Source: an uncultured archaeon (GTDB taxonomy: Archaea; Thermoproteota; Nitrososphaeria; Nitrososphaerales; Gagatemarchaeaceae). Taken from it: DNA of 64,000 nt. The stretch's first letter is position 1. Each line of letters begins with the position of its first letter. Shown here piece by piece: positions 1 to 33,975 of the stretch. Made by a program: the position numbers and the translations under genes. The notes beneath the pieces were generated by a model that saw only the letters and a program-made list of their open reading frames with translations, ran no database searches and was not told where the DNA came from. Location: the NCBI GenBank assembly GCA_963799775.1, contig CAWCYD010000003.1, positions 544,001-608,000 on the forward strand, written 5' to 3'.

Positions 1-235
1 GGTGGAGGCCCTTGCTGAGGGCTTCAGAGCGCTGCCGCTTGTAGAGGATGTAAGAGTTCGTCATCAGGACCTTGAAGCCCATCGACTCGAACTGTGAGAC
101 GGGGATGTCTCGCCAGACCGGGTGAATCACGGGAGTTAGGCATGGGGTCTCGAAGCTCTTTTTGCCCACGGTGACGACCCCGATTCGCCCCATGAGGTCG
201 GTCTCCCGGACCTCAAAGGAAAACGGGGTAGGCAT
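1..235 (-). CDS. tgtA: Archaeosine tRNA-guanine(15) transglycosylase, N-terminal part (runs off window)
   Basis: Not in ORF track. Manual translation from ATG at 235: MPTPFSFEVRETDLMGRIGVVTVGKKSFETPCLTPVIHP...GFKVLMTNSYILYK...KGLH, matching the archaeal TGT N-terminus. Confidence 0.88.
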   Translation of the reverse strand, partial: MPTPFSFEVRETDLMGRIGVVTVGKKSFETPCLTPVIHPVWRDIPVSQFESMGFKVLMTNSYILYKRQRSEALSKGLH

Positions 236-362
236 CGCTGGGACGGCCGTTCGCTGATAGACATATCAGGATTCCTAGGGGCCAGGAAGCCAGGCCGTCG
301 CAAGCAGTCGAGCAAAACGCTTATCCAAACAAGGCCTGCTACAACCAACCGAAGGACAAGGG

Positions 363-593
363 ATGTCGCGGCGTCGCGTTGCAAGCTTCAGGATGCAGCT
401 CCTAGTTGCCCTGTGCATCCTCGTCGGGCTCTTCTTCGTCGAATATCCTCCAATATTCCTAGTGGGCTATTGGGCTTGGGGAGCCCTCGTACACAAGACG
501 CTGTCGGGAGTGTTTATCGTCCTGAACCTGTTGATCACACAATATGCGACTAGGCGCCTGGGTTTCTTTCAGAGCGCCACGATCAAGGCCTGA
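363..593 (+). CDS. Small two-TM membrane protein
   Basis: 76 aa with two hydrophobic stretches, fills an intergenic gap. Confidence 0.5.
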   Translation: MSRRRVASFRMQLLVALCILVGLFFVEYPPIFLVGYWAWGALVHKTLSGVFIVLNLLITQYATRRLGFFQSATIKA

Positions 594-621
594 AAGCTGG
601 GCGAGCCGCGGACCCGCTAGT

Positions 622-2380
622 CTACGCCGTCCCGAAGGCCCTTCGTGACTTGGCCTTGTGGTCGCTCGAGCGTTTGAACCTCTCCTCTTCGTCGACGTTG
701 GCCCGCTCGTGGTACCCGAAGCTCTCCCAGTATCCGTCGACGTATTCGGGGATGAACTCTATCTTCGTCAGCCACTTGGCGCTCTTCCAGCCGTAGAGGT
801 GAGGCATGAAAGGCCGGGCGGGGAACCCTTGCTCTGCCGAGAGGGGCTTCCCGTTCATCTTCAGGGCGACGATAGAGTCCGGCCGCAGGGCGTCCTCGAC
901 GGGTATAGGGGCCGTGTAGCCATCTGCGCAGTGGAACATCACCCACTTCGCTTCCTGCTTCACCTTGGCGGCGTCTGCCAGGTACTTGATCGGCACGCCC
1001 TCCCAGAGGGGTCGCTCGATGGACCACGAGGTAACGCAGTCTTGAGTAACGAACGGCGAAAGCATCGTGAATGCGGGCGGCGCCTGGAAATCATAGACGC
1101 TACCCGTGTACCAATCGGACCAGACTCTTCGTATGGGATAGTAGAATCCTTCTGGCGTCTCCTTGTAGTGCATCCTGTCCACCCGTTCCTTCGTCCTGAA
1201 GTCAGGGATGAGGCTGCTAATCTTGCTCCCACAGACCCTAACGCTATACGCCATCCTTACGGAGCCCGGGTGATTTACTAGTTCCCCAGGTACGCCCAGC
1301 TTTGACAGCGCCAGGAGGAGTTGATACGCGAGGATTCTGGAGGAGGTTGTGAAGTCAATAAGCTCCGACCTGGTTTTTTCGATGGCCTCCTTTGTATATC
1401 CGTCCCCCCGGAGGTACCTTTCAAGGAATTCTCTAACGGACCTTGGGCTCGGCGTCCATGATGAAATCGGGTATGTATTTGTTCGCGGCTCCGATTCCAC
1501 ACCAGTCAGCGAATATCGTACGAAGACGACCGGCTCGACTGCTCGTCGCCACGACGGTCATTCCTGTCCCCCTCTCGTTGAGGTAAGTCCCCATCCGAGC
1601 TCCCATCAAATCCTCCATGAGCTCGATTATCTCGAGCCTGTGCTCTTGCTCTGAGCTATTCAGGGCGAATGCCACAGCCCGATCGTAACTGCTTGCAGCG
1701 GATCCCTCTGCTAGGTACCATCCGAGCAGCCTGGCAAGCTTCTCGTCAATACTGAAGGTGACGCCTTGCGACGTGACTCGTTGTTCGGGGGAGATGAACT
1801 TGTATTTCGGAAAGAAAACATAGTCTCCCTGCTTCAACGCGTCTCCCCTTATCCACTCAGCTCTCCATCCCTGTCGGAAGGTCAATTTTCTCCGCTTGCT
1901 CCTCGCCTTCCCGTAACCTGGATGGGCGCGAACCGCCCAAACTGGGTGGTCCGGGGTCAACAACACGGTAGGAAGATAGCTGGCCTTCACGCCGATGACC
2001 TGCCCGCTGTGGGGGATACGAACGAGTTCGGTCACCTTGTGATTAAGACCATCGTGGCCGACGATTTCCATGCCGGGACGGATGTCTTCGATTGCCAAGG
2101 GCCTGGGCTTCGCGTAGACCAGGCTACCCGGGAGAAGGCAGTGGAAGCTCTTCGAGTAGCTCGTCATGGGAAGCGTCATGAACTCCGCGTAACCGAAGAT
2201 GAGTGGGGTCTCCACCAAGCCGCTGACCTCCAGCCTCCACTTCGCTGGGTCCACGTGCTGGACGCCCATAGCAGCGTAGATGACGAACTTCTTGCCCCAC
2301 ACTTGGCCCGGCGGGAGGGGTTCTCTTGGTGCTGCAGCCGCCGTGGCGCTGGACTGTGACAAGATAGGCTGTTGCAACAC
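622..2380 (-). CDS. Sulfite oxidase/MsrP-like molybdopterin oxidoreductase interrupted by an intein (one indel near 1438)
   Basis: N-extein LPPGQ...[10 protein letters not shown]...SFH; C-extein CVTSWS...DGYTAPIP...GFPARP...[10 protein letters not shown]...GYWE..GYH. Confidence 0.9.
1039..2140 (-). mobile_element. Intein with LAGLIDADG homing endonuclease
   Basis: Block A CLLPGSLV, block [18 protein letters not shown] and [10 protein letters not shown], block F VYDF, ends VTQD before +1 Cys. Confidence 0.92.
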
Positions 2381-17261: not shown

Positions 17262-18078
17262 ATGTCTAAGGCCCCTGTCAGAGGGAAGCTCCGGAATCCG
17301 CCCCGAGCGCGGCAATACGCAATGATCGCGGTCGTCATCGTGCTCCTAGTAGCAGGTGGCTCAGGGGTATACCTATACGAAAGCCATGCAGCAACTTCGA
17401 CCACGACGACCAGCCCTAGCTCATCATCAAGCGCCTCAGGATCGACCTCGTCCAACTCTTCGAGTTCCGCGTCCACCACATCGACGACGGGCTTCACGAA
17501 CCCTCCGTGTTCACCCTCCAGCACGAGCGCGACGACGAGCGGCAGCAGCACAAAATACGCCCTCATTTGCACCAACCTTGGTCTCATCGAGGTCGAGCTC
17601 TATCCTCAGTATGCGCCACAGACCGTCGCAAACTTCGTGAACCTCGCGAACCAGGGATTCTACAACGACATCGTCTGGCACAGGATCGACCCAGGGTTCG
17701 TGATCCAGGCAGGAGATCCCAACACCAGGAACGGACAGGGAGACAGGTCCACGTGGGGGACCGGGACGTCCGGGACGAACGTGCCATTCGAAGGGACCTC
17801 CATCCAACCCTCTTAGCAATGTCGTCGGGAGCGTGGCAATGGCCAGCACCGCCGCCAAATCTGGAGGAAGCTCCCAATTCTACATCAATCTGGCGGACAA
17901 CGCCCAGTCCCTCGATGGCAGCTACGCTGTCTTCGGCCAGGTCATCAGTGGGATGAACGTCGTGAACGCCTTGGCGCAAGTGCCGATAAACACAAGTCAG
18001 AGCTCTTCAGAATACGACCAGCCGCTGACGGCATCGTCCGCCTATATCGTCAGCATCACACTCCAGAGCACCCCTTAG
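17262..18078 (+). CDS. Membrane-anchored cyclophilin-type PPIase with Ser/Thr linker (indel near 17800)
   Basis: APQTVANF, WHRIDPGFVIQAGDP, SQFYIN, YAVFGQVISGM. Confidence 0.92.
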
Positions 18079-19424: not shown

Positions 19425-22400
19425 CTACGTGTGCTGGAAGGTCATGAACGCCGAGTTCACGTAGTCGGTCACGATTATGGTATAGTAACCAGCGGCAGCG
19501 GTGGGCACCTGGAACGTCGTCCCTGCAGGTATGTTGCCAGAACTGGTCATCGTGAACGTCTTGAGCGTCGTTATCACGCCCACCGAGTTCATCCATCCTA
19601 TCGTGGCCTTTGCGTTCGCGTTGAACCCGCACGGGCTAGTGCAGGTGACGGAGATGGTCGCGCTCGTGGCCCCTGCCTGCGGGGATGTGGCCGCGTTCGC
19701 GTTTGTGACGTATCCTGTAGGATAGGGGATGGTCGCGCCGAACAGGGTGTGGTCGCTGTAGATCCCGCTCAGCTCGAACGTGGCCTGGAACCCCGCTATC
19801 TCGTCCAGGAGGTCAGTCGTGGTCGCTAGCGGCGTCATCGAGCCGAAGTACATCGTCACCGGGGTGTCGTACGGCAGCGTCACAAAGTCCTGGCTGGAGT
19901 TGTAGGCGACGAGCCCCGTACCGTCGATGTTCACACCCTGTATTATGAAGAAGACCGTGTTCTCGAAGAACTCGTCCTCGTCCGTCCCCACGGTCAGCAC
20001 CGATGTCGGGAAGACGGTTATTGTGCGGTGCTCCGGGTCGAGGTTGGTGAAAGACTCGCTCCACTCCAGCTTTATGTTCTCGGGCACCGCCAGCGCCGGG
20101 TATCCTCCCACCTGCTGCCCGTTCTGGGGATTGACCAGCGCGCTCAAGGCGATGGCGGACTCCACCCAGGTCTCTGAAGTGCTAAGGGTAAAGGATGCTG
20201 TCTGAGCACCTGTCGCAGTAGTCAGCGACTCAGTGCACCCGTTCGAGGCGTCGCTCCCGTCACACCCACCGGATCCGGTCTTCACGCTGGTATAGCCGGT
20301 CCCGACGGTGTACGTGGTTGACGAGGAAAACGTTTCCACGCTGCCTATCATGATCGGGCCGCTGCCGGGCGGCGTGATCGAACCGACGGACGCTGATGTC
20401 GACCCTGTCGCTGAGCTCCCAGTCGAACTTTCCATTCCTGTAGTTGTGTATCCGGCGAGCTCGTAGATGGAGACGGTGCCTACCACCGTCGAGCCGAACG
20501 TCGCCTTTATCGAGTCGGTGCCTGAACCCGCCGCCGTAGCGTACCAGATGTAGGAGTAATAGGTCTGGGTCTTGGGGGCGAACGCCAGCGCGACCTCGAC
20601 CCAGGGAGAAATGGGGCTGATCGTCATCGGGACCGTGGTCGCGGAACCGACTCCGAGCTGGTATTCTCCGCACCCAGTCACCGATGGGGAACTGCACGTT
20701 CCGGACAAGGTGTAGCCTGACCCGACCGTGTAGCCGGTAGACGCACTCTCTGTGTTACCTATGACCACCGAGCTTGCGCTCGGGGTCATCGAGGTGACCG
20801 AGGTCGAACCAGAGTTCGAAAACGAGCTTCCGGTCTCGCTCAGGAGCCCTGTAGCCGTCACGCTGCTAAGCTCATAGATTGAGACCGACCCCGCCACAGA
20901 CTGCCCGAAGCTCGCCGAGATGGTGTCCGATCCGGTGCTCCCCGCCGTGGCGTACCACATGTAAGAATAGTACGTCACAGCTGTGGCCGGCGTGAATGAC
21001 ATGGCTACCTCGACCCATGGAGTTGAGGCGCTAATCGTGAACGGCACTGTCGTAGCGGACCCGAGGCCCGTGGCGTATTCGTTGCAGCCCTGGGAGGCGT
21101 GGCTCGCATCGCATCCTCCGGCACCTGTCGCCACCGTCGCGTAGCCGCCGCCAGCTGTGTACTCTGTCGAAGCCGAGCCTGTCTCCACGTTGCCTACCAC
21201 GAACGAGTTCGAGTTCGGCGTTATGGAGCTTACGCTAGAGGCTGTTGATCCAGCGGATGAACTGCCTGTCGACGAGAGTATGCCCGAGGTCGAGTACCCG
21301 GCTATCTCATAGATCGAGATCGAGCCGGCGACGGCCGAGGCGAAAGTCGCAGTCACTGTGTCGGCTGCGGAGCTCGATGCCGTCGCGTACCAGATGTATG
21401 ATTCGTACGTCGTTCCCCCGCTGAGCACGGAGAGGGAGGTGCCCACCACGAACGTGTCCCCGAGAGTGTCCGTCACAGAGGTGGGAGACGCCGTGCCCTG
21501 CACCAAAGTCCCCAATGAGGTGGACGGCATAACTCCATTCGGCGGGTAGGCCCGCGCTCGCCCCCAATTGTACTCCATGCTTGCAGTGGAGCCTGAGGCC
21601 GTGCTGAACAGAAAGCCAAGATAGAGGTGCCCCGCGGCAGAAATGGGGTTCACGTTCACGACGCCGCTGTAGCCGTTTGTCGTCGAGTATAGCTGGGGAG
21701 CAACGTACCCGCTGTACCACGTCGAGGTGGTCCCAGGGTAAGACACTGAACCGAACTGCCATGCGGTGGAAGCGCTTCCCTGAGGGTTGACGTCTGTGGT
21801 TGCCGCCCCGCCTGTCACGTAGTCTTGGTTGAAGTACGCGCTGTTGTAGCCGTTGTTGGTCCCTATCGCGTTCTGGACGCTTCCTGCTGCGGAATTGTCA
21901 ACCAGACCGGCGGTGCCCGAGTCCGTTCCCGTCTTGGAGTTCTCGAAGTTGCTCTCGACCACTGTCCCCGTCGTCGTCATCTGAGTGCTGAAGACGAGAG
22001 GCGTTTCACTGGTGCCGTAGCCCGTCAGCTTGATCGCGGAGATGGTGCCTGCGCCGTAGGTCACGCCTGTGGCCTGCGCCAGTGCGTAAGACTGGCCTGC
22101 GACGAGAGAGAAGCTACCGGTGGCGGTGTTGCCGTTGAAGTACGAGTTGAAGACGTTTGCTCCGTTGTCGTACTGGCCGTACGTCGAGGTCAGGTTGGGA
22201 GCCTCTCCCCAGTAGTTGTCGTCGAAGTTCACGTTCGTGGATTCGAAGACAAGATAGACCGTCAAAGTCCCTCCGTTGCCCGCAATCGAGGATGTGAGCT
22301 TCACCCATGCGTTCGCGGAGGTGGAGCTGGAGCCGCTGGTGCTGCAGGTGCTCGAGCACGACTCGAGCCACGCGTAGAGGGGAGTGTTGCAGGCGTCGTC

Positions 22401-25046
22401 TGCACAGAAGCGGACGTTCCCCAAGTTCGTCGCCTCGTATGTCGAATATGAAGAGGGGTTCCAAGACACGAGTTCCTGGAACGTGGTCGGGGTGGCCGTC
22501 GCTGGCGCCGCCTGGATGGCGTCCGCGGTCATCATCCAGTTGTCGGACGAGTCGGTGGCAGTTCCGAACGACTCGGTGACGGTCGTTTGGGTGGTTGTAA
22601 CCGTCTTGTATTGGACCGCGGCCTCTGAACCCCCGCTGCCGCCTGTATTCTTCTGGACTTGAATCAGGCTGTATCCGGCACCCCCTGTCTCCGTCGGAAA
22701 GCTTGAGTCAGAGGTCGTCGTGAGCCCTGCAAACCCAAGGATCATATCGTTCGCATTGCTCGTGGAGATGCCAGTCACGGAAGGTGTTCCCGCCGTTGTG
22801 GCCGTCGCGCTCTTCGGCAGCGCTACGTTCGCGTCCCACGGGGTCACTATGTTCGCGCCGTTTACGCCGAGCGCCACTATCGAGCAGTCGTCCGTGGACC
22901 CTGAAAGCGTGACCGTGATCTGCACTGAGGAGAGCGCCAAAGGAGAGTATGCCCACCAAACTTCCCCATCGGAGTACGGGGAGGAACTGATAGAGCTCGT
23001 CGACCTGTGTGCGAAGGACAGCCCGGTCGCAGTTACGCTGCTCACCGACCTGACCGAAGCGTGCGTGGTGTCCTCGTTGGCTACATAGACTAAGATGATG
23101 TCGTTCGAGTCCGCAGTCGAGAGGGTGACATGGCCCGAAGTGGCAGTGGAGAACGAACCAGTCGCCGAACCGTCAAGGAAATGACCCGGAGTTGCGCAAC
23201 TGGAGGAGGCGGCCTGGATCGCGTCCCCAATCATCGTCCAGTTGGTGTTGGCGACTCCGAACGACGCAGAGACTCCCGCTTGGGTCGAGCTTACCAGCTG
23301 ATACTCGGCCGCCACCTCGTCGGCACCAGTGCCTCCCGAGTTCACCTGTGTCTGTATCAGGGTGTATCCGGAGCCCGCGGTCTCGGTGGAAGGGGCACCT
23401 GCGCCCGGAACGGAGTCCCCGTTCACTCCGAACAGGATGTCTGCCGCGTTGCTCGTGGAGATGCCGCTCACCGACGGGGCTTGAGATGCGGTGTTGCTGT
23501 TGTAAGCGGGTATCGCGCCGTTGGTGTCCCAAGGGGTGCTCGTGTTTGCACCGTTCACTCCAAAGGCCACTATAGATGCGTCGTCGATGGAGCCCGTCAA
23601 GGTCACGGTTATCGAGGCGGATGACAGGGTCGATGATGCCAGCGCCCACCAGACCTCGGTGTCTTCATAGGGCGCAGAGTTCTGCGTGACTGCCGATCTG
23701 TTGTGGAAGGTGAGGCCTGTCGACGTCACCCCGCTCACGGTCCTTAGCACGCCGTTCGCGGTGTTCTCGTTGTTCACCGCGACCACTATGATGTCGTTCG
23801 TCTTGCCCGTGGTCAGCGTGACGGCACCCGTGTTCGTGCTCGAGAAGGAACCTGTGGCGCTCCCGTCGATGGATAGCGACGACGACAGCAACTGGCAGTT
23901 CGTTATGGTCACGGGCACGTAGTTGTATGGCGTCGTGGTTGGCCAGCCGAGCCCGTAGACGAGAGTATTGCCGTAGGTGACAGCCGAAGAGTACGCCAAG
24001 GCGCACGTCGCGGCGTTGCAGTTCGCAAGGTACCTATGCTGGACGACCGACGGAGACGGTGGGTTGTAGGTCACAGACTGCGACGCTCCCAGCGTGAACG
24101 CATCGTTGAAGGTGTCAGTGGGCGCAGAAGGGGCAGCCTCGTTGGCCCATCCCAACCCGAAGACCAGGGTGTCGCCCGATGATACCGCCGAAGAATAGGC
24201 CAGCCCGCACGCCGCCGCGTTGCAGTTCGAAGTGTATCTCTCCTGTACGAGCCCCGGGCTGTAGGTGTGTATGACGGAGTTCGAGGCGCCCAGGGTGAAG
24301 GTAGAACCGAGGGTGTCGGTCGGGGTGGATGGGGGACTCTGCCCATACCAACCTAGTGCGTAGAGCAACGTGTCCGCCACGGTCACCGCCGAGCCGTACG
24401 AGAGTGAGCATTGGTTCGAGTTGCAGTTCGCGGTGTAGCCTTTCTGCACTATCGACGTCGGCTCCGCGTTCAGGGCGTGCCACCTGAACTGGTTGAGGTT
24501 GACCACAACGGACTCGCTCGATGCTGCGTTGTTCACGTTGTTCGCGACCGTGGCCGGGTAGGTCTGGGAGAACGTGTTCCCCCGAGCCGTGAGCACTATC
24601 ACTTCGTCCACTCCGCTGACGTACAGATACCCGGTGTCGAATATCGCCGATCCGCTGCCTACGTTGACGACGCTCCATAGCGTAGGGGTCGTGTTCCCGC
24701 AGGACGCGGAGGCAGGCTGACCGACCCCGTCGCACTTCAAGAGAGCGCCCGTCTGAGATTGGACGTATACGGCAGTCATGTTGATGACAACGCCCGAAGT
24801 GTTATTCACGTAGAACCCTACGTCCCCGTTGGGTTCCAGAGTCGTAGTGACCTGGAGGCTCTCGGCAGAGGCTCCTTGCAGCTTGTTGGTTGCGCCGACG
24901 AGGTTCTGCGCGTAGGATGCGTTCAGGTTGTTCACGAAGATGAAGTACGACGTTCCGACGGTGAACAGGATCGCAAACATGATGATCGTCGCGATGATGC
25001 CTGCGATACCCCTCCTCCTGCGCCGTGCTATCGGTCCCATCTTCAT
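19425..25046 (-). CDS. 1873-aa minor pilin/adhesin with class III signal peptide, nested repeats and DUF2341-like domain
   Basis: RRRRRG/IAGIIATII signal; S/T-rich; repeats visible; NVRF...LYAWLE...WVKL...YWGEAP.L...YGQYDNG..VF...RAYPPNGVMP. Confidence 0.9.
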   Translation of the reverse strand: MKMGPIARRRRRGIAGIIATIIMFAILFTVGTSYFIFVNNLNASYAQNLVGATNKLQGASAESLQVTTTLEPNGDVGFYVNNTSGVVINMTAVYVQSQTGALLKCDGVGQPASASCGNTTPTLWSVVNVGSGSAIFDTGYLYVSGVDEVIVLTARGNTFSQTYPATVANNVNNAASSESVVVNLNQFRWHALNAEPTSIVQKGYTANCNSNQCSLSYGSAVTVADTLLYALGWYGQSPPSTPTDTLGSTFTLGASNSVIHTYSPGLVQERYTSNCNAAACGLAYSSAVSSGDTLVFGLGWANEAAPSAPTDTFNDAFTLGASQSVTYNPPSPSVVQHRYLANCNAATCALAYSSAVTYGNTLVYGLGWPTTTPYNYVPVTITNCQLLSSSLSIDGSATGSFSSTNTGAVTLTTGKTNDIIVVAVNNENTANGVLRTVSGVTSTGLTFHNRSAVTQNSAPYEDTEVWWALASSTLSSASITVTLTGSIDDASIVAFGVNGANTSTPWDTNGAIPAYNSNTASQAPSVSGISTSNAADILFGVNGDSVPGAGAPSTETAGSGYTLIQTQVNSGGTGADEVAAEYQLVSSTQAGVSASFGVANTNWTMIGDAIQAASSSCATPGHFLDGSATGSFSTATSGHVTLSTADSNDIILVYVANEDTTHASVRSVSSVTATGLSFAHRSTSSISSSPYSDGEVWWAYSPLALSSVQITVTLSGSTDDCSIVALGVNGANIVTPWDANVALPKSATATTAGTPSVTGISTSNANDMILGFAGLTTTSDSSFPTETGGAGYSLIQVQKNTGGSGGSEAAVQYKTVTTTQTTVTESFGTATDSSDNWMMTADAIQAAPATATPTTFQELVSWNPSSYSTYEATNLGNVRFCADDACNTPLYAWLESCSSTCSTSGSSSTSANAWVKLTSSIAGNGGTLTVYLVFESTNVNFDDNYWGEAPNLTSTYGQYDNGANVFNSYFNGNTATGSFSLVAGQSYALAQATGVTYGAGTISAIKLTGYGTSETPLVFSTQMTTTGTVVESNFENSKTGTDSGTAGLVDNSAAGSVQNAIGTNNGYNSAYFNQDYVTGGAATTDVNPQGSASTAWQFGSVSYPGTTSTWYSGYVAPQLYSTTNGYSGVVNVNPISAAGHLYLGFLFSTASGSTASMEYNWGRARAYPPNGVMPSTSLGTLVQGTASPTSVTDTLGDTFVVGTSLSVLSGGTTYESYIWYATASSSAADTVTATFASAVAGSISIYEIAGYSTSGILSSTGSSSAGSTASSVSSITPNSNSFVVGNVETGSASTEYTAGGGYATVATGAGGCDASHASQGCNEYATGLGSATTVPFTISASTPWVEVAMSFTPATAVTYYSYMWYATAGSTGSDTISASFGQSVAGSVSIYELSSVTATGLLSETGSSFSNSGSTSVTSMTPSASSVVIGNTESASTGYTVGSGYTLSGTCSSPSVTGCGEYQLGVGSATTVPMTISPISPWVEVALAFAPKTQTYYSYIWYATAAGSGTDSIKATFGSTVVGTVSIYELAGYTTTGMESSTGSSATGSTSASVGSITPPGSGPIMIGSVETFSSSTTYTVGTGYTSVKTGSGGCDGSDASNGCTESLTTATGAQTASFTLSTSETWVESAIALSALVNPQNGQQVGGYPALAVPENIKLEWSESFTNLDPEHRTITVFPTSVLTVGTDEDEFFENTVFFIIQGVNIDGTGLVAYNSSQDFVTLPYDTPVTMYFGSMTPLATTTDLLDEIAGFQATFELSGIYSDHTLFGATIPYPTGYVTNANAATSPQAGATSATISVTCTSPCGFNANAKATIGWMNSVGVITTLKTFTMTSSGNIPAGTTFQVPTAAAGYYTIIVTDYVNSAFMTFQHT

Positions 25047-25871: not shown

Positions 25872-26210
25872 ATGACATACCTGCAAAAATCGGCGGGCGT
25901 GGCGCAAATGGATCAGACATCTGTTCGAAAGACGGTGAACAGGAGATCGCAGCTCGAGATCAGGATGGACATCCTGCGGGCAATCATGGAAGGGGCGGAA
26001 GGACCGACTCAGATCATGTACAAGGCGAACCTCTCCTGGATCCTGCTTTGCGACCACTTGACGGCCCTTGGAGAGCAGGGGTTCGTAGGCGAAAAGAGCG
26101 TCGGCAACAGGAAAAAGTACTCCTTGACCGGTAAGGGCATCGAGATCGTCGGAGCCTATCTTAACTTGATAAGGGAGATAGTCTTTGACACGGCCGCGGC
26201 TCCGATGTAG
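25872..26210 (+). CDS. Winged-helix regulator (HTH_45 family)
   Basis: RRSQLEI..DIL...TQIMYKANLSW...Y.LT.KG. Confidence 0.9.
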   Translation: MTYLQKSAGVAQMDQTSVRKTVNRRSQLEIRMDILRAIMEGAEGPTQIMYKANLSWILLCDHLTALGEQGFVGEKSVGNRKKYSLTGKGIEIVGAYLNLIREIVFDTAAAPM

Positions 26211-26279
26211 AGTCAAAAAGCAGCTCAAGCAAAGCAAAGCGAATGCAACGGGCATTCGGTTGAAAGGTTAATATCCCGA

Positions 26280-26546
26280 ATGAGGGGCAACAAGCCCGGC
26301 TACGGAATGGGCGAAAGCGAAACAGCCCCTGGGTCTTACATAATTTGCAATATCTGCAATAGGGACTTTCGCGACCGAACCGAGCTGATCGAGCACCTCC
26401 GCACCGAGCACGAGATCCTCGAGCTCGCGTCTTACACCGCGGCGACCATGGCGGCCGAACAGGAGCGCGACAGGACCGCGGCAGAGTTCAGGAGGAGGTT
26501 CGAGCTGCTAAAGAGGGAGCTCGCCGGACACACCGAGCAGCGCTAA
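26280..26546 (+). CDS. C2H2 zinc finger plus helical tail
   Basis: CNICNRDF....L.EHLRTEH. Confidence 0.8.
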   Translation: MRGNKPGYGMGESETAPGSYIICNICNRDFRDRTELIEHLRTEHEILELASYTAATMAAEQERDRTAAEFRRRFELLKRELAGHTEQR

Positions 26547-26593
26547 GAGCGTCTAGCCTTTATTAAGGCCCTGACGTGGAAGTCAAATTCCGC

Positions 26594-26824
26594 ATGGCCG
26601 ACGAGCCTATCATCGACATGACCAAAGTCTCCGACAAGGGGCAGGTTGTCATCCCCAAGGAGATCCGTGATAAGTTAAAGTTCAGCGAAGGCTCGAAGCT
26701 CCTCGTGATAGCCACAGAAGACGCCGTGATACTTCAGAGGATCGAGACGGTGGCTGGCAAGATGCGAGTCAAGGACATAATGGACAAGGTCAGGTCCATC
26801 GCGAGCAAGATCTCTCTCGGCTAG
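26594..26824 (+). CDS. AbrB/MazE/SpoVT-family DNA-binding protein
   Basis: KVSDKGQVVIPKEIRDKL...G.KL. Confidence 0.9.
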   Translation: MADEPIIDMTKVSDKGQVVIPKEIRDKLKFSEGSKLLVIATEDAVILQRIETVAGKMRVKDIMDKVRSIASKISLG

Positions 26825-27185: not shown

Positions 27186-29812
27186 TTACTCCAGGGACGT
27201 GTCGAAGTCTTCCTCGCCGGAGCCGCCCTTGCCTCTGCGCCTCCTGACAAGGAATATGGCTGCCACCGCGCCGCCAGCGCCGCCGATGGGAAGAAGCAGC
27301 ATGGGGAAAGTGGTGAGCTGCTGCGTAAGCGTGGGCTTTGGCTTCAGAGCGTGCTTGGGTGGTGGAGGAAGGCTGACCTTCACCGTGAAATTGAGGGTCT
27401 TGGTGGAGAGACCATATGGGACTGTCACGGAAACGATAGCTGTGCCGACCTTGTTCGGCTTGTATATTGCGGTTGAGGAACCCTGAGCGTCTGTAGTTCC
27501 ATTCACCTGCGGTGTTCCTGTCGGGGCAGCCGTCGTGGTGGATCTTGTGGAGGTCGTGTTGGTCTCGGTCGTGCTGGTTGAGCTGTTGGAGGGAGGCGCT
27601 GCGAGGACCACGTTGCCGATGGATGCCTTCCAGAGCACCTGAGCGCCAGCATTGGGCAGGCCGTCCACTAGGAGGCTCACTGATATGACGGCCGATTGGT
27701 TCGTAAAGATCGCGGCGGGGCACTCCGGTAATAGTCGCCTGAGTTGGGAAGGGGAGGAACGTGACGGAGACGAGGGCGATCGCCAGGCCCGGAACAGAGA
27801 TAGTCAGCGTCGTGGTGCCTGGGACTCGCGGTTGCAGAGGCACGTACACAAAGTCTTGTCCGAGGCCAACCGAGGCGCTCGTCACTTGCGATATCACGGT
27901 GCTGTTCGAGGACGTAAGAGTCATGTTCATCGGAGCTCTTGCTCGCGCCGGATTCCCGGCTGAATCGGTGAGCTGGACGGCAATCGAGGAATAGAGATTG
28001 GAGGCTTTGGGGCTGAAGATGAGAACATTCAAGTCAGGCACCTCCGGCCGATATCGCGGATGGAGCAGGGATTACAGCCTCGACACCCACGGTGGAGCTT
28101 GTGGTGCCGCTCGTGAAGGAAGAGACAAGTGCGGTGACATTGGACCCGCCCTGCAGAAACCCTGTGGTGACGTTGAGGACAGCGAACGTCTGACCGGCCG
28201 GAATAACGGCATTGCTGACTCCGATGATCTCACTTTGAGACGACGTGAGGCTGACCGGGACGTCGGAGGCAGCGATCGCCGGATTGCCAAGGGCATCCTC
28301 CAACGAGAGTTCCAGTGCTGGATGTGACGCTCCGTCAGCAGGAAGATTCCCAGAGATTGCGCTAACGACAACTTGTGCTGGAACAGAACCATAGGTCTGA
28401 AGGGGAGTCTGGGCCGGCAGCATGTTCTGGGCAGAAGCAGTCAGCTGGGTTGTCCCGACTTGATAGGTTGAGGTGAAGGTGACAGCCGCCCAGTTTTGGC
28501 CCTTTGGAATAGCGAAAGTGATGGTGGTAAAGTTACCCACGCCTGTGATCGACGACGTGAGGGTGATCTCGGTCGGTCCAGTGTCGTTGACGGCGGGAGC
28601 CCCGCTGAGTACCGCCTGGAGCGAGACGACTACTGAGCTGTACGACCGATGATCGGCCAAGACTGGATTGGGCCCAGCATAAATCTGCAGCTGACAGCTT
28701 GACGATGGCCCAGTCTTGCAGTATGTGGGGCTGATTACGGTAGGTGAGGTCACCGTGATTGTGGCGAAGCTGGATTGCAATCCTGGAGAACTCGCGGTGA
28801 CTTCAGCCTCATCGGGGGTCGAACCCACTATCGATGTCGCAGTTACCGTGAAAGTAGCGATGGCGGTTATGTTTCCTTCCTTGATTGTCGTCGTTTCCGT
28901 TGCATTTACGACGGCAAGATCAGAGCTTCGAATCTGCACCTGGATATCCCTGGTTGCCCTGGTCGGGTTGCCGTTCGAGTCGGTGAGTGCCACTACAAGT
29001 CTTCCATTACAAGAGGTGACGTTGTTCGTGCATGCAGGCATGAAGCTAGGCTGTGCCAGCATCTTGAGTGTCAGAGGAGGAGAACCCAACACCGTTATGG
29101 CGACGGCTCCGGAACCGAAGCCCGGCGCAGTGGCTGTGATGAAGGCAGAACCGGGGACAAACCCGCTGGTGTAGTTCAGTTCCCGCAGATACTCTCCCTG
29201 CTTCATCACTGTGGATGCTGCTGTGACGTTCACGACGTTTGAGTTTGAAGAATAAAGCGATATGGGGACATCATCTATCGCCTTCGCCGGCAGTCCTAGA
29301 TCGTCCACCAGCTGAAGAACAACGAAACCAGTGCTGGCTGCGCTCGCTGGAACGATGTTCGGCACCGCGCTGACCACCAGGCGCGTCGGATAGCCGACCG
29401 CGACCACGGTGGTGACCGAGGTCGAAGCTGTCTGCAGACCTGTAGTCGTCGCCGTGATAGTTGTGACACCAGGAGTGTGCGTCGTGGTAAAGTTCGCAAC
29501 CGCATAAGCATCGTCGGCGGGTATCACGACCTGATTCGTCACCTTCCCCACGTTTGCGGTCGACGAAGTGAGAGAGATGTCGAGGTCGGTCAGCGCCACA
29601 GTAGGCCTGCCTGATCCGTCGACGACAGAAACGATGATTGCCGGGTAGGTGTTATTGTCGGCAGGTAGCTTCGAGGGTATTGGAGAGACAGCAAGGGATA
29701 GCGGAGCGCGTCCCGTGGCAGCTGATGTTGCATCTCCCATAGGAATCGTTCCCATTGCTATCAGAGAGGCCAGAAAGATGCAAATGCCAAACCTGACCGA
29801 ATTACTTCGCAA
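27186..29812 (-). CDS. Surface protein with about six Ig-like repeats and C-terminal TM anchor (indels near 28045 and 27715)
   Basis: Repeats of LPAD...V.L.D..GNP..A..D..I.LTSS; signal peptide; TM followed by RRRRGK. Confidence 0.85.
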
Positions 29813-29901
29813 CTATTTCGCAAAACAAGCGCTTATGATGATATTTAGACATGGTAGATGTCGTAGTCCAGATTTGGAATCCATCGCTAAGGGCGGTCTG
29901 G

Positions 29902-31627
29902 CTAGATCGCGTGGCCGAGGATGACGCCGGACAGGGCCACCATCATACCCCCGATGACCACGAGGGCCAGCGAGTGTTTGAAGCCGTCGGCTACCGTCCC
30001 ACCACCCATCTTCCCGGCGACGAATCCGATTACCCAGCCGTCGAAGATCGAGGCCGTCAGCAGTCCCTGTACTGCGTCGGGGGTGATGGTCAGCCCCGGC
30101 GTGGGTGCAGCGGTCCCGCCTAGCTTTATCGGTGTGGAGAGGAAGTAGACCATCATGAAGGTCGTGAGCGTGAGCATGATCCCCGCCATGTACACGACGA
30201 AGATGTACGACCTCAAAGCGGATTTCTTGTCTGACTCGAGCTCGTTCACCTTCTGGGTGAAGTCGGCCATCTGCGAGAAGCTCGTGACTGTTCCGCCGCC
30301 GACGTCGACCACTTCGACCATCAGCGTCCCGATCGCCATGGTGATCCAACTGTCGACAGATGACGCGAAGGTCTTGATGACTTTGATGATTGGAAGGCCC
30401 CGATGATATCTGGGCCCCCATCGTCTTGATTGACTTTGAGAGACGGCCGTAATTCTTGGACGCGAGCTGCTCGATGCTCCCTTCGGGAGAAAGACCGATC
30501 TTTCTCCCCTCCGCGACGTCACGGATAAAGTCAGGAAGGGCTTTCTCCAGTCCGTTCCTTTCCCTTGACTGCCTGAATGCCGCGATCGAGGGAATCACCA
30601 TTATCGAGCCGAGAGCAATGGACACATGGAGGCTCAGTTGAAGGGGCAGGGGCAGTAGGTAGATGACCAGCCCGATGGGGCAGCAGGCCAAGAACACATA
30701 GTACGGACTCTTGTTGAAGTACGGCTGTTTCGGCTGCGTCCCGTCGATGATGAAGATGAAGAGCGCGGATATTGCGGGGACTACGAGGTAAGAGAAGATG
30801 TAGAGGCTCTGCAATCCGCTGCTGTTGTGGGCCACCACTCCCTCTAGTTGGTAGAGGCTGAACAGAGTTATCCCCATGACGGCGGTGACCGTGAGATACG
30901 CCTCGGCGAGCGTTCCCACGGAGTCGGTGATCCTCCTCACTTTGGAGCTTCTTAGCTCCAATGTCTCTTTCAACTTGTTGTTCACGTAGTTCTTGACGTC
31001 GCCCCCTACCTTCAGCACCGTGGTGTATCCGTAAAGGAACTCTGCGAACGGCTTGTTGGGCATATGTCTTGCCGCGGTCTCGAACGCAGTGATAGGGTCG
31101 GTTCCGAAGACCTCTATGTCGACCAGCAACCTCTTCGCTTCCTTCGCGGACGCGGGAAATATCTTGGACATGCCGGAAATCCTACGAAGGGTCGAAACAG
31201 GTGAGACTCCCCCGCCTGAAAGGACGCCTAGGAATCCGATCAACATGGGGAGCTCGTTGTCTAGGGCTTGGGAGCGGGAGCTCTGTGATGCCTTCGGTGC
31301 GTTCCATATCATCACGAAGACGATCGGTGGGGCGAGGAAGGCGAAGTAGAGGTAGATTATGTGTAGTTCCATCCCGAGAATGATGCAGACTACGACCGGT
31401 ATCAAGGACAGGATGGTCGAGAAGAGCGCAAGGGAGACAAGGGCTTCAGGAGTAATTCGCATGCTCGATTTCAGTATCTGCTCCCTCATGTCCGGGGAGG
31501 ACTTCGCTATCTTCTTCCCCTGGGATCCGAAGATCTTGTAGGCTATCGCCGCCGTCCGGTCGAAGAGACCGAGCTTGGTGCCTCCGTTCTTCCTGCGGGC
31601 TGCGGTCTCGATCGCGACCTGGGTCAA
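29902..31627 (-). CDS. Type IV pilus membrane platform (TadC/ArlJ, T2SSF family; indel near 30405)
   Basis: Two T2SSF repeats (LDNELP...SGG; LEKALPDF...G.S), multi-TM. Confidence 0.92.
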
Positions 31628-33248
31628 AGCTTGAACCCTTCGCGCATCTCTGCCTGGATGGCCAAGCCGGCCTTCCCAAGGCCCATCCCTTGCGCGATCG
31701 AACACCTCGCGCGAGTGGGCCCTGTACTCCTCGAAGACCAAGGAGAGCTCTCGAAAGTTCCGGATCTCCCTTTGTTGGGCCCACCGCATGACCATGCTCC
31801 TCCGTTCGATCTCCATCATCAGGTCGGGTAGGGTAGTCCCGGTGTCCCTTGCCAGCCTTGCGAGCTTGACGCTCGTCTTGTAAGGCGATGCGACCTGCTT
31901 GTCGGTCGCTGGATCCCACTTGAACATCCTGACGTAGTTTCCGACGCTGACAACCTCGTCGACCGAGAGAACCCTCCTCATCGTCTTGAAGCCACCGCCT
32001 GGGATGGGAATCGCGATCCTCCTCACTGTGAAGACAAGGTCGAGGAACGGGATGAATGATGGAGGCACGTCCATGGGCTTGGACGTGAGCCTCTGGATCG
32101 CCGAGGTGACATCGTCTGCGTGAAGAGTGCAGAGGCCTCCGTGACCTGTGCTTATCGCTTGGAAGAGGACGTAGGCCTCCTCTCCTCTAACCTCTCCCAC
32201 CACAAGGATGTCGGGCCTCATTCTCATGGTCGCCTTGACGAGCTGGAAGAGCCCCACCTCTCCGCTCTTGTCTTCACCCGTCCCGTAGCTTTCGCGAGAG
32301 ACGAGGGCTGACCAGTTGGAGTGTGCGATGTTGATCTCCTGGACCTCCTCGATCGTCACGATCTTCGAGTTCATCCTCGTCAGTGTCAGCAGGGCGTTGA
32401 GGAGAGTCGTCTTCCCGGATCCCGTCGAGCCGCACACTATTGCGGTCGCCCGGTTCTCCATTAGGAGCCAGACGTAGGCTGCTAAGTTGTAATCTATGAC
32501 GTTGAAGTTCATCATGTCTATGATGGTGAGAGGATCCTCTCTGAATTTTCTGATCGTGAGTGTTCCGCCGTAGGGTGAAATCTCTCGCCTGTATGTCGCG
32601 GCGAGGCGGTGCCTGCCCGGCAAGGTCCACTTGCACGATCGGGAACGCGGTGGAGACGTGCTTCCCAGCCATGTGCGCCAGCCTAGCGATGATGTTGTCG
32701 AGCTCCTCGTCGTGGAGGAAGGTCATGTTGGTCTCGATGTTGTCGTACCTCCTGTGGAAGATGAAGAGCGGCTTGCCGACGCCGTCGACGGTGATGTCCT
32801 CGATCTGCGTGTCCCTCATCACCCCGTCGATCACGCCGAAGCCCACCAGGTCTCTCTCCGCGAAGTAGTTGATCTTTGGCCAAGACAGTTGAGAGGCCTT
32901 GATAGAGTATTTCTTCACCAGTCTCTTGGCCTGCTCCAGGAAGTACGCCCTCGGATCGATCTCGGAGCGGGGGACCGAGAGCTCGCTCTCGAGCGTGTCG
33001 AGCAAATATGTGTAGATCGACGCCTCCTTGGTCGAGAGGACCACTTCGTCGACGAAGTACTTCCTCGTGCCGCTCGCCGGCTCCTCCGCGATCACAGCGT
33101 AAGCAAAAGGGGCGTTGAGCGGATACTTGTCGGCGACCTTCCAGGAGGGTGAGAGCGGGGCGCCGACGAATGGGAAGCGGACGGAGGGCTTGCCCGGCTT
33201 GGCGCCGGGGGTCGTCTCCTTCTTGCTCAGAAAAGGCAGGCTAACCAA
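31624..33248 (-). CDS. Type IV pilus assembly ATPase (TadA/ArlI/VirB11 family; indels near 32625 and 31685)
   Basis: GSTGSGKTT, RMRPDILVVGEVRG, STGH..T.HA. Confidence 0.94.
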
Positions 33249-33377
33249 TCTGGTCTCTCCGTACGACCATGTCGAGCAATCTTAACGCGGCCAGGCTTCT
33301 ATTGGGCCGCGTCTTTGAAGAAATCGTCATCTTTGGCTCGAACTATCGCTTTTTTCGCGTTCTTTGCAATAAATAGC

Positions 33378-33398
33378 TTATGCATTCTGAATCGATGA
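33378..33398. promoter_or_regulatory. Shared operator upstream of pilus ATPase operon
   Basis: TTATGCAT-n5-ATCGATGA 4 bp from reverse TTTATT. Confidence 0.6.
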
Positions 33399-33462
33399 AT
33401 CCCAGATAGAAAAGAACAGAGGTCGTCGCGAATTGGGCTCTTCGAGCGCCCGATCCGGGCGA

Positions 33463-33975
33463 TTACTGCCACGTTCCGGTGTAGAGTACGACCGCTCCGT
33501 TGGAGAGCGTCACAGTCCCAGAATAGGTTTGGCCTGAGACCGGTGTAGTTGTTACAGTCGGGGTAGAAACGAACTCTGCGTAGGTGGTCGCAGTGGACGA
33601 CCCGGCGCCTCCGACCGAGCAGGCAGCGGTCATAGCGAACGCGTTGCTCGTGCCTGCCCACGTTAACGTAACGCCAGTGATCTGTGCACTAGCCGTTCCA
33701 GTATTGGCAAGCGTGAGGTATGGTGTCGTTGGATTTGTAGTCACGCAGGTGACAGTCCCAGCCGTGGCGCCAGTTGCGAACCCCGCCGCGTTAACCGATG
33801 TTCCGGTAACAGCTATCTGAGCGGACTGCGAAGCTGTCCCGAAGATTCCGAAGACGAAGCCGCCGATCGCGACCGCTGCGATAAGCGTGACAGCGATGAT
33901 AAGGACCGTGGCGATGATTGGGGAGATGGCTCTTCGCGGTGACGACCTTTTTTCGGCGGGCATTCGCATCTTCAT
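33463..33975 (-). CDS. Major type IV pilin, paralog 1
   Basis: RRA/ISPIIATVLIIAVT class III signal. Confidence 0.93.
   Translation of the reverse strand: MKMRMPAEKRSSPRRAISPIIATVLIIAVTLIAAVAIGGFVFGIFGTASQSAQIAVTGTSVNAAGFATGATAGTVTCVTTNPTTPYLTLANTGTASAQITGVTLTWAGTSNAFAMTAACSVGGAGSSTATTYAEFVSTPTVTTTPVSGQTYSGTVTLSNGAVVLYTGTWQ

Follow-up and report, generated by a model that had tools for sequence, protein, structure and literature searches.

Domain insertion, and a two-level nest of domains within a pilus adhesin, are already known: in RrgA, the tip adhesin of pilus-1 in Streptococcus pneumoniae, domain D3 lies in D2 and D2/D3 lie in D1, and the halves of D2, made separately, re-associate (PMC5333627). 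Among type IV filaments, PilB and PilC of S. sanguinis combine a pilin module with a vWA or a concanavalin-A-like lectin module and have been modelled at the filament tip, and GspK has an extra domain inserted in its pilin beta-sheet (PMC8179133). In methanococcal pilus loci, large secreted DUF2341 proteins have been proposed as tip adhesins by analogy with PilY1 (PMC4858521); adhesin-like proteins also come up in a survey of such loci for archaeal type IV filaments published in 2026, whose main text contains none of the terms "nested", "DUF2341" and "large pilin" (PMC13705601). Here we describe a gene for a protein of 1873 residues (P0001) in a window of 64,000 nucleotides, the whole stretch analysed, from an uncultured archaeon of the Nitrososphaerales (family Gagatemarchaeaceae; assembly GCA_963799775.1, contig CAWCYD010000003.1, positions 544,001 to 608,000). 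We consider it quite likely that the gene, taken as a whole, is to be explained as encoding a surface protein that resembles type IV pilins and has a nested stalk, in an archaeon of the Nitrososphaerales type. Its conserved N- and C-terminal modules, here called Pn and Pc, are separated by a 1442-residue insert that would have been built by recursive insertion of domains into loops: domain A, a predicted beta-sandwich of ~200 residues, would occur in three copies, the second and third each sitting in a loop of the copy before it, with the chain running outward via three N-halves (An) and back via three C-halves (Ac), while the innermost A would hold a domain D in an earlier loop and D, past its first strand, would hold two tandem B domains.

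As in RrgA, domains appear to be assembled from N- and C-terminal segments that flank inserts, here as judged from structure prediction and from the comparative grammar of relatives. RrgA, however, has two levels of unrelated domains, whereas P0001 would comprise five successive insertions, three of them of the same domain in itself; nesting depth in the P0001 family varies from 0 to at least 7, unlike in RrgA; and RrgA is a sortase pilin with isopeptide bonds, whereas P0001 has a type IV prepilin-like N-terminus and locus and showed neither isopeptide bond nor sorting signal, although no search aimed at these was made. The two share no sequence relationship, and P0001 is RrgA-like in topology and not a member of that group. 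Modules of the PilB/PilC type, in a bacterial survey (IPR012902), were grafted once and mostly at the C-terminus (PMC8179133), whereas those of P0001 would be internal insertions, flanked on both sides by conserved segments of a pilin-like protein from an archaeon, and would be raised on a nested stalk. With the methanococcal proteins P0001 shares its large size, a DUF2341-like domain and an archaeal pilus locus; unlike them, it has a D domain that falls below the Pfam cut-off and A and B domains without any Pfam family, and nesting goes unmentioned in the available text on those proteins (PMC4858521). Like modular type IV pilins, P0001 joins a pilin-like module (Pn) to modules not peculiar to pili (A, B and D). 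Tandem-repeat stalks of bacterial adhesins are beta-sandwich rods whose length is given by a repeat number that differs among relatives and sets the reach of the tip; they have one linker per joint and the functional domain at the chain end, whereas each joint of P0001 would be crossed twice with both chain ends at the base, a repeat that tandem-repeat logic cannot find.

The gene is a single intact open reading frame (ORF) on the minus strand without internal stop codon (Table 1). Comparison of 120-residue windows of P0001 with the rest of the protein yielded repeats of a similarity far above chance: 1) three N-half units of ~67 residues within 199-375 (215-280 vs. 282-348, 55% identity, E 8e-22); 2) two B units of ~230 residues within 393-850 (B1 vs. 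B2, 57.5% identity, E 2e-40); 3) three C-half units of ~140 residues within 1210-1640 (53-60% identity, E 2e-35 to 5e-42). In addition, the tails of N-halves 1 and 2 match residues 1184-1254, just past D (33%, E 6e-6 and 29%, E 7e-5, respectively). Six unit hidden Markov models (HMMs) were derived from P0001 (Pn, residues 1-198; An; B; D; Ac; Pc, residues 1641-1873) and iterated once on 40 database relatives of 1030-3278 residues; with these, the third N-half ends near position 40 of 61 profile positions, and a separate match at residues 1184-1207 covers positions 37-60. A preliminary description of the DNA, made from the letters alone, had claimed this order of parts, the repeats that a self dot-plot should display and a third A that resumes exactly where it was broken off, and all of these are borne out by motif positions, self-comparison and unit HMMs. 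Ten of its 11 motif positions lie within 2 nt of where the motifs are found; RAYPPNGVMP, placed at ~21530, is found at 21554, 24 nt off.

Read linearly, the gene resembles two tandem arrays, and the N- and C-halves might accordingly be unrelated small independent domains that flank B and D with no nesting at all. This reading has to contend with the grammar of the homologs, in which each An was read as an opening and each Ac as a closing bracket. Both Pn and Pc are present in 29 of the 40 relatives of the first search, 28 of them with A units, and in all 28 of these full-length homologs An and Ac are equal in number and properly nested, to a depth of 3 in 16 and of 4 in 12 (not counted here is a weak Ac-like match within a D, at P0014 595-730 with E 1.4e-14). 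One of them, P0033, is branched at depth 4 and has five A units, with two complete A units in two loops of the third A. In the remaining 11 relatives Pn or Pc is missing. P0037-P0040 are without A units; the other seven (P0027-P0031, P0035, P0036) have them and appear to be fragments that obey this nested grammar. Searches among shorter proteins added depth 2 (P0064, 874 residues and complete, and P0053) and depth 0 (P0116 and P0115, the latter of 429 residues with Pn at 6-186 followed directly by Pc at 192-429), and fragments show six successive N-halves in P0035, from the first search, and seven in P0043. Depth at the same insertion point, a comparison that the preliminary description had proposed, accordingly varies among homologs: complete proteins have a depth of 0, 2, 3 or 4, and fragments reach at least 6 to 7.

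The same relatives bear on whether A is a domain in its own right. In P0032, P0033 and P0064 the innermost A is contiguous, and since just 4 residues separate An from Ac in these proteins, A exists, as read from their sequences, as a contiguous unit of ~200 residues; contiguous A units also occur in P0013 and P0053. The preliminary description had named halves of A that are never contiguous as an outcome that would speak against it, and these five proteins show the opposite. As for the C-half, in sets cleaned of cross-contamination the full-length Ac profile (1-133) could be aligned with B, at positions 69-215 of 223 (hhalign probability 97%, E 4.9e-11), so that by profile comparison the C-half of A and the last two thirds of a contiguous B domain are homologs. 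(An earlier hhalign value for B vs. Ac, E 1e-41, was discarded, as the Ac profile had absorbed B sequences.) B itself is, by its family, normally contiguous at ~225 residues: the family counts 1772 cluster representatives at E <= 1e-3 (958 at E <= 1e-10), and many of these consist of this one domain, with a length of 230-260 residues. In P0054 to P0056, B is split at profile positions 62-70 by an inserted B plus D. With its 61 profile positions, An fits the first 68 positions of B that Ac leaves uncovered, and we surmise from length, position and the split-B proteins that An is equivalent to the first third of B. As side observations, P0054, P0055 and P0056 (~945 residues, with class III-like N-termini) form a second pilin-like family with a split B, and since B is split there, the same loop would be an insertion site outside the A family as well.

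Pairing of the halves was addressed by a two-chain fold (ESMFold2) of residues 196-375 vs. 1184-1640 with a custom 16-row alignment of depth-3 relatives (alignment A2). The interaction prediction score from aligned errors (ipSAE) was 0.78 in 3 of 3 runs, whereas the best of three controls scored 0.00; the mark for this score is reached by 58 of 80 solved complexes and by 2 of 110 mismatched pairs, a rough guide here given the custom alignment. The runs had at least 97% of contacts in common, with a predicted local distance difference test score (pLDDT) of the partner of at least 89. All of the 25 lowest-error contacts fall into three groups in nested register: 1) 1218-1223 and 1246-1247 with 358-365, joining the first C-half to the third N-half; 2) 1364-1365 with 295-296 and 318, joining the middle C-half to the middle N-half; 3) 1499-1503 and 1529-1530 with 226-231 and 250-252, joining the last C-half to the first N-half. 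Residue 1501 contacts both of the separate stretches of N-half 1, 226-231 and 250-252, which suggests that N- and C-halves may interleave. The preliminary description had asked of structure prediction whether the first N-half pairs with the last C-half and the third with the first, and this is how they pair in the two-chain fold; binding of the N-halves to the returning C-halves is thereby supported, not demonstrated, and a comparable complex is not known to us. As a side observation, an invariant CxxxxC pair in each N-half (residues 208/213, 275/280 and 343/348) and invariant cysteines in the first two C-halves (1321 and 1451/1459) are seen in alignment A2; they are candidate disulfides that would stabilize each A domain.

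Covariation favours the same pairing across the family. Over 97 pairs, the An and Ac columns had a mutual information of 565.9 when paired as in a nest and of 471.5 when paired in the same order, vs. 447.4 +/- 6.3 (maximum 463.1) in 60 within-protein shuffles, and among fixed mappings the nested one ranked first of 6 at depth 3, with same-order last, and second of 24 at depth 4. A different register, such as one that joins N1 to the first C-half or a domain-swapped one, finds some room in these data: at depth 4 the mapping (3,2,0,1) scores 603.1 as compared to 600.5 for the nested one, the unit types are partly homogenised, and orthology judged from best hits to P0001 units was inconsistent between proteins and thus uninformative as to nest level. 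Such a register would, however, have to be squared with the nested position of every one of the 25 contacts, with the last rank of same-order pairing at depth 3 and with linkers of 4-8 residues between successive halves, which suit only neighbours in a nest, and we find it hardly credible. The account without nesting fares little better, and we deem it very improbable: besides the balanced brackets in 28 of 28 homologs, it would leave aside that the C-half is just the last two thirds of a contiguous domain, that B is split at the same loop, that the two-chain score far exceeds its best control with residue 1501 touching two stretches of one N-half, and that covariation is highest for the nested pairing.

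Several results weigh against the nested fold and have to be set beside this evidence. Single-chain AlphaFold gave no confident nested fold: residues 334-1352 of P0001 had a mean pLDDT of 52.5 and a predicted template modelling score (pTM) of 0.34, B1 and B2 being near 80 and D and most of A3 below 50 pLDDT, and residues 211-1045 of the four-level nest of P0032 had a mean pLDDT of 55.9 and the same pTM of 0.34. Foldseek with the first of these models finds nothing in the PDB at E <= 1e-3. Naming the fold by VIA-align against 48,161 chains was tried and abandoned, with best Z scores of 5.9 (first model) and 7.5 (second) that are too low and too tied, the matches being CBM-like, TNF-like and phage receptor-binding heads; A, B and D were thus assigned neither a fold nor a ligand. 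hhalign finds no significant similarity between An and the first third of B. The two-chain score is the model's own confidence, with alignment rows taken from the same proteins for both chains, and the sequences behind the mutual information are related, so that its results are to be read as rankings rather than probabilities. Finally, the P0001 query found no full-length relative in 60 other sampled genomes of the same order. The poor single-chain models were used solely for the ranges of fold matches: single-domain PDB sandwiches align in them from an N-half to its nested partner (3..915 in the first model; 67..597, 64..691 and 1..733 in the second), which lends weak support to nested pairing. 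On the whole, the architecture pilin[A1[A2[A3[D[B1,B2]]]]] of the preliminary description is upheld by the agreement of dot-plot, depth series, contiguous A and two-chain pairing, with corrections as to the pilin fold, the loops and the DUF2341 label.

The first of these corrections to be taken up concerns the loops. A1 and A2 are interrupted at the junction of An and Ac (loop 2), which in relatives accommodates a further A or a B. In A3 the break comes ~20 residues before that point, just past GLGW (loop 1), and relatives have D, two Ds or, in P0033, an A there. A single insertion loop, as had been claimed, thus holds for A1 and A2, which share the junction loop, but not for A3, which makes two loops in total, a point half-noted in the preliminary description. 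At the tip, the first strand of D joins the remainder of D directly in six homologs that have no B (YVPVTITNSQGSATPxxFQQ, uninterrupted; GLGWPTTQVYGYIPITITNSQSSATTNPFQQIVTWNP), whereas in P0001 B1 and B2 intervene, so that YVPVTITNCQ is separated from ATPTTFQELVSWNP by 467 residues. Because of this contiguous D in homologs without B, the comparison supports D[B1,B2], that is two B domains inserted after the first strand of D, in keeping with the interruption of D that the preliminary description had proposed. Its label for D needs qualification: D is DUF2341-like, but in P0001 it scores 15.9 bits vs. the gathering cut-off of 23.4 for PF10102 (E 0.019, residues 876-932) and so stays below threshold, while a PF10102 match is precomputed for 13 of the 40 relatives.

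A few further observations concern D and its surroundings. D (window 21489-22496, minus strand) matches phrog_7548, a family of function unknown, along almost all of D (E 2.8e-50, profile positions 252-583 of 591), and by this match close relatives of D would occur in viruses of bacteria or archaea. By tblastn, relatives of D at 28-54% identity were found on Micrarchaeota- and Bathyarchaeota-labelled contigs and, among bacteria, in a few such as Planomonospora, Streptomyces and Chitinophagales. A relative of 2280 residues without A (P0034) has Pn, the first 15 residues of Pc, D domains interrupted by B at several positions and then the remainder of Pc; since its D domains are interrupted by B, domain-in-loop insertion would not be confined to A.

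We also examined what is being nested into. P0001 has an N-terminus (MKMGPIARRRRRG/IAGIIATIIMFAILFTVGTSYFIFV) of basic residues followed by a hydrophobic stretch; five relatives are named "flagellin-like protein" by their sources (P0038, P0055, P0056, P0088, P0128). The preliminary description had placed the nest inside a pilin. Pn and Pc are indeed contiguous at depth 0; however, Pn also joins unrelated C-terminal regions that the Pc profile does not match, in 4 of 32 matches (P0118, P0122, P0128, P0130), and the insert of P0034 sits 15 residues further into Pc. For these two reasons the nest probably lies, as far as sequence comparison goes, between two modules, Pn and Pc, and not inside one pilin fold.

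The gene lies in a type IV pilus neighbourhood. The small pilin gene upstream stops 7 nt before the start of the giant gene, and given this gap the two are probably co-transcribed; a secretion ATPase, a TadC-like platform and a second pilin lie within 9 kb upstream on the same strand, so that P0001 is encoded with a secretion ATPase, a TadC/ArlJ-type platform and pilins. Gene order is conserved in 4 of 4 related loci (L005, L006, L007 and L010, from Nitrososphaerales-labelled and unlabelled archaeal bins) as ATPase, platform, ~890-residue surface protein, a trio of small genes, small pilin and giant nested gene, with an M50 peptidase next in L006 and L007 and a peptidyl-prolyl isomerase (PPIase) in L006.

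Table 1. Coordinates of the nested pilin-like gene, its parts and the adjoining pilus genes (window positions; gene parts listed from the N-terminus)
Feature	Residues of P0001	Window position	Strand	Evidence or remark
Whole gene P0001	1-1873	19425..25046	-	1873 residues, stop codon included
Class III (prepilin-type) signal-like N-terminus	1-38	24933..25046	-	basic RRRRRG, then ~24 hydrophobic residues
Pn, pilin-like N module	1-198	24453..25046	-	HMM match 7-192, E 3e-90
A1 N-half	199-265	24252..24452	-	self-comparison, unit HMM; two-chain fold contacts to 1499-1503, 1529-1530
A2 N-half	266-333	24048..24251	-	self-comparison, unit HMM; two-chain fold contacts to 1364-1365
A3 N-half, part 1 (ends after GLGW)	334-375	23922..24047	-	unit HMM; contacts 1218-1223, 1246-1247
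D first strand (YVPVTITN...) and linker	376-392	23871..23921	-	strand contiguous with D remainder in six homologs without B
B1 domain, contiguous	393-623	23178..23870	-	self-comparison, unit HMM, AlphaFold pLDDT ~80
B2 domain, contiguous	624-850	22497..23177	-	self-comparison, unit HMM, AlphaFold
D remainder, DUF2341-like	851-1183	21498..22496	-	HMM match E 3e-155; phrog_7548 E 2.8e-50; PF10102 E 0.019, below cut-off
A3 N-half, part 2	1184-1209	21420..21497	-	resumes at profile positions 37-60; alternate residues 1185-1199 in two-chain interface
A3 C-half	1210-1354	20985..21419	-	self-comparison, unit HMM, hhalign, two-chain fold
A2 C-half	1355-1492	20571..20984	-	self-comparison, unit HMM, two-chain fold
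A1 C-half	1493-1640	20127..20570	-	self-comparison, unit HMM, two-chain fold
Pc, conserved C module	1641-1873	19428..20126	-	HMM match E 2e-116; contiguous with Pn in P0115, P0116
Small pilin gene, 198 residues		25054..25650	-	Pilin_N E 0.0034, below cut-off
Divergent small-gene trio (winged helix, C2H2 zinc finger, AbrB/MazE-like)		25872-26821	+	between machinery and pilin genes
Type IV pilus locus		27186..33975	-	pilin, ATPase/platform, surface protein
Surface protein, ~890 residues		27186..29812	-	locus comparison
Secretion ATPase and TadC-like platform		29813..33248	-	T2SSE E 1e-34, T2SSF E 1e-10
Pilin		33463..33975	-	Pilin_N E 3e-6

Placement on a pilus meets its own difficulties, and these tell against a working pilus protein. 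TIGR02537 matches P0001 at E 0.074 and 12.6 bits with a cut-off of 20, and Pilin_N (PF07790) gave no match in P0001 in the Pfam scan, whole or in pieces. Compared to L005, ATPase, platform and surface protein each continue in another frame and occupy two or three frames apiece, with at least four frame shifts between 27.2 and 32.8 kb, near 32600, 30410, 28043 and 27719; ATPase and platform each lie in two frames, yet share one open frame of 936 residues. Short G/C runs are found near the frame breaks, and soil-metagenome contigs (runs X1 and X2) either have no coverage there or are pieces with many differences; the shifts may be sequencing or assembly indels or may be real decay of the pilus machinery. 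The sole Peptidase_A24 candidate in the genome, which is 82% complete, scores 25.7 bits vs. a cut-off of 26.5 (E 2.8e-5; G000:C3:853147-853431).

It is conceivable on these grounds that the nested architecture is real but belongs to a non-pilus protein, held in the membrane by its N-terminal helix with or without processing, which would be a stalked receptor of the cell surface or a substrate-capture protein like those of the bindosome. Substrate-binding proteins of the Sulfolobales bindosome carry class III signal peptides. The bindosome is named as a type IV pilus-type system (PMC4858521), and the argument gains from pilin profiles below threshold, from a head of ~1830 residues that is far larger than any filament subunit and from the broken frames of ATPase and platform genes in this assembly. 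We nevertheless regard a non-pilus receptor as unlikely, because the giant gene follows a small pilin with ATPase/TadC/pilin synteny in 4 of 4 loci, because the depth-0 relatives are ordinary-sized pilin-like proteins of 415-429 residues, and because bulky modular tip pilins have precedent (PMC8179133).

Broken frames in the neighbourhood also raise the question of whether the ORF of P0001 is itself an assembly artefact, with repeats collapsed or chained by the assembler. Its repeat copies, however, are merely 60-72% identical at the DNA level, and the same grammar recurs in 27 further full-length database proteins. Furthermore, seven listed places of the gene are matched by short-read contigs from run X1 of a soil metagenome, without any indel and with 0 or 1 differences, which makes a mis-assembly of the repeats unlikely. 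Taken together, we give an artefactual ORF next to no credence.

Two neighbours deserve a word as side observations. The regulator-like trio is present in all five loci at 70-96% identity between loci, and is a candidate for regulation of the pilus locus. A cyclophilin-type PPIase gene on the plus strand of the window is in two ORFs, 17262..17816 and 17833..18078, and its homolog in L006 is likewise split. As to gene content elsewhere, the source genome of P0001 has one nested pilin. Among the relatives, P0004/P0005, P0009/P0010, P0006/P0012, P0016/P0021 and P0027/P0029/P0031 differ within each set in depth or tip content, each set coming probably from one contig, and in some genomes there would thus seem to be two or three nested pilins that differ in stalk and head.

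Standard annotation is nearly silent on this protein. A Pfam scan of whole P0001 found no family at E <= 1, and a scan in pieces gave the sub-threshold DUF2341 as the only relevant match; A and B have no Pfam family, and B was covered by Pfam in none of 42 relatives scanned (of 150 listed). PHROGs searched with B1, B2, one C-half and P0115 yielded no family, and a PDB sequence search with P0115 and B1 to D yielded no match at E <= 1. The blank that Pfam returns for a protein of 1873 residues with at least nine recognisable units thus amounts to an annotation blind spot. Other domains in relatives that carry B are of extracellular binding kinds: Laminin_G_3, Flg_new_2, RHS, SPRY and F5/8 type C. 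As a side observation, the nearest clusters to B1 in the ESM Atlas are unnamed proteins of 220-238 residues, mostly of tailed viruses (score 0.96); a relationship between B and the receptor-binding heads of viruses is possible, which we mention as a lead only.

Based on the above, we propose that the protein is processed as a prepilin and that its N-terminal helix would anchor it in the membrane or in the pilus of the neighbouring machinery. Each A would be completed by an N-half and the C-half at the mirror position, and the three A domains would stack as a stalk, each joint being crossed by two linkers, of 7 residues on the way out and 4-5 on the way back. This stalk would hold the lectin-like D and B domains away from the filament. 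Because the head comprises ~1830 residues, an argument made likewise for PilB (PMC8179133), the protein would be accommodated only at the pilus tip or very sparsely in the pilus. At the far end, D and the two B domains may bind a ligand, probably a glycan; we propose a glycan because of the DUF2341/concanavalin-like affinities of D and the domain company kept by B. For an adhesive, pilus-borne role the balance of the evidence tips slightly in favour.

As for how such a stalk may grow, the nest would lengthen as whole domains enter the innermost domain at either of its two loops, a mode of growth that fits the series of depths, the contiguity of the innermost units and the branching of P0033. 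The order of the insertion events, on the other hand, is not derivable from units as homogenised as these.

A self-nested domain stalk was not found described in the full text of open papers and preprints, the body of literature searched, and what is apparently new here is the self-nesting of one domain, threefold to sevenfold or more, to a depth that varies among close relatives. We incline, if by a narrow measure, to the view that recursive self-insertion constitutes a principle of its own for building and tuning rigid extracellular rods, in which a double-linked stalk carries exchangeable lectin-like heads. If true, there would be a class of nested-repeat proteins invisible to tandem-repeat and domain-annotation tools, and the mechanics of their stalks would differ from those of beads-on-a-string adhesins. 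Should the pairing of the halves hold, the family would provide: 1) natural graded rods, of depth 0, 2, 3, 4 and at least 7, in which stiffness, force resistance and tolerance of proteolysis could be compared to tandem stalks; 2) two loops that accept whole domains, which would be useful for protein display; 3) a first candidate for the attachment of soil Nitrososphaerales-type archaea to surfaces or glycans.

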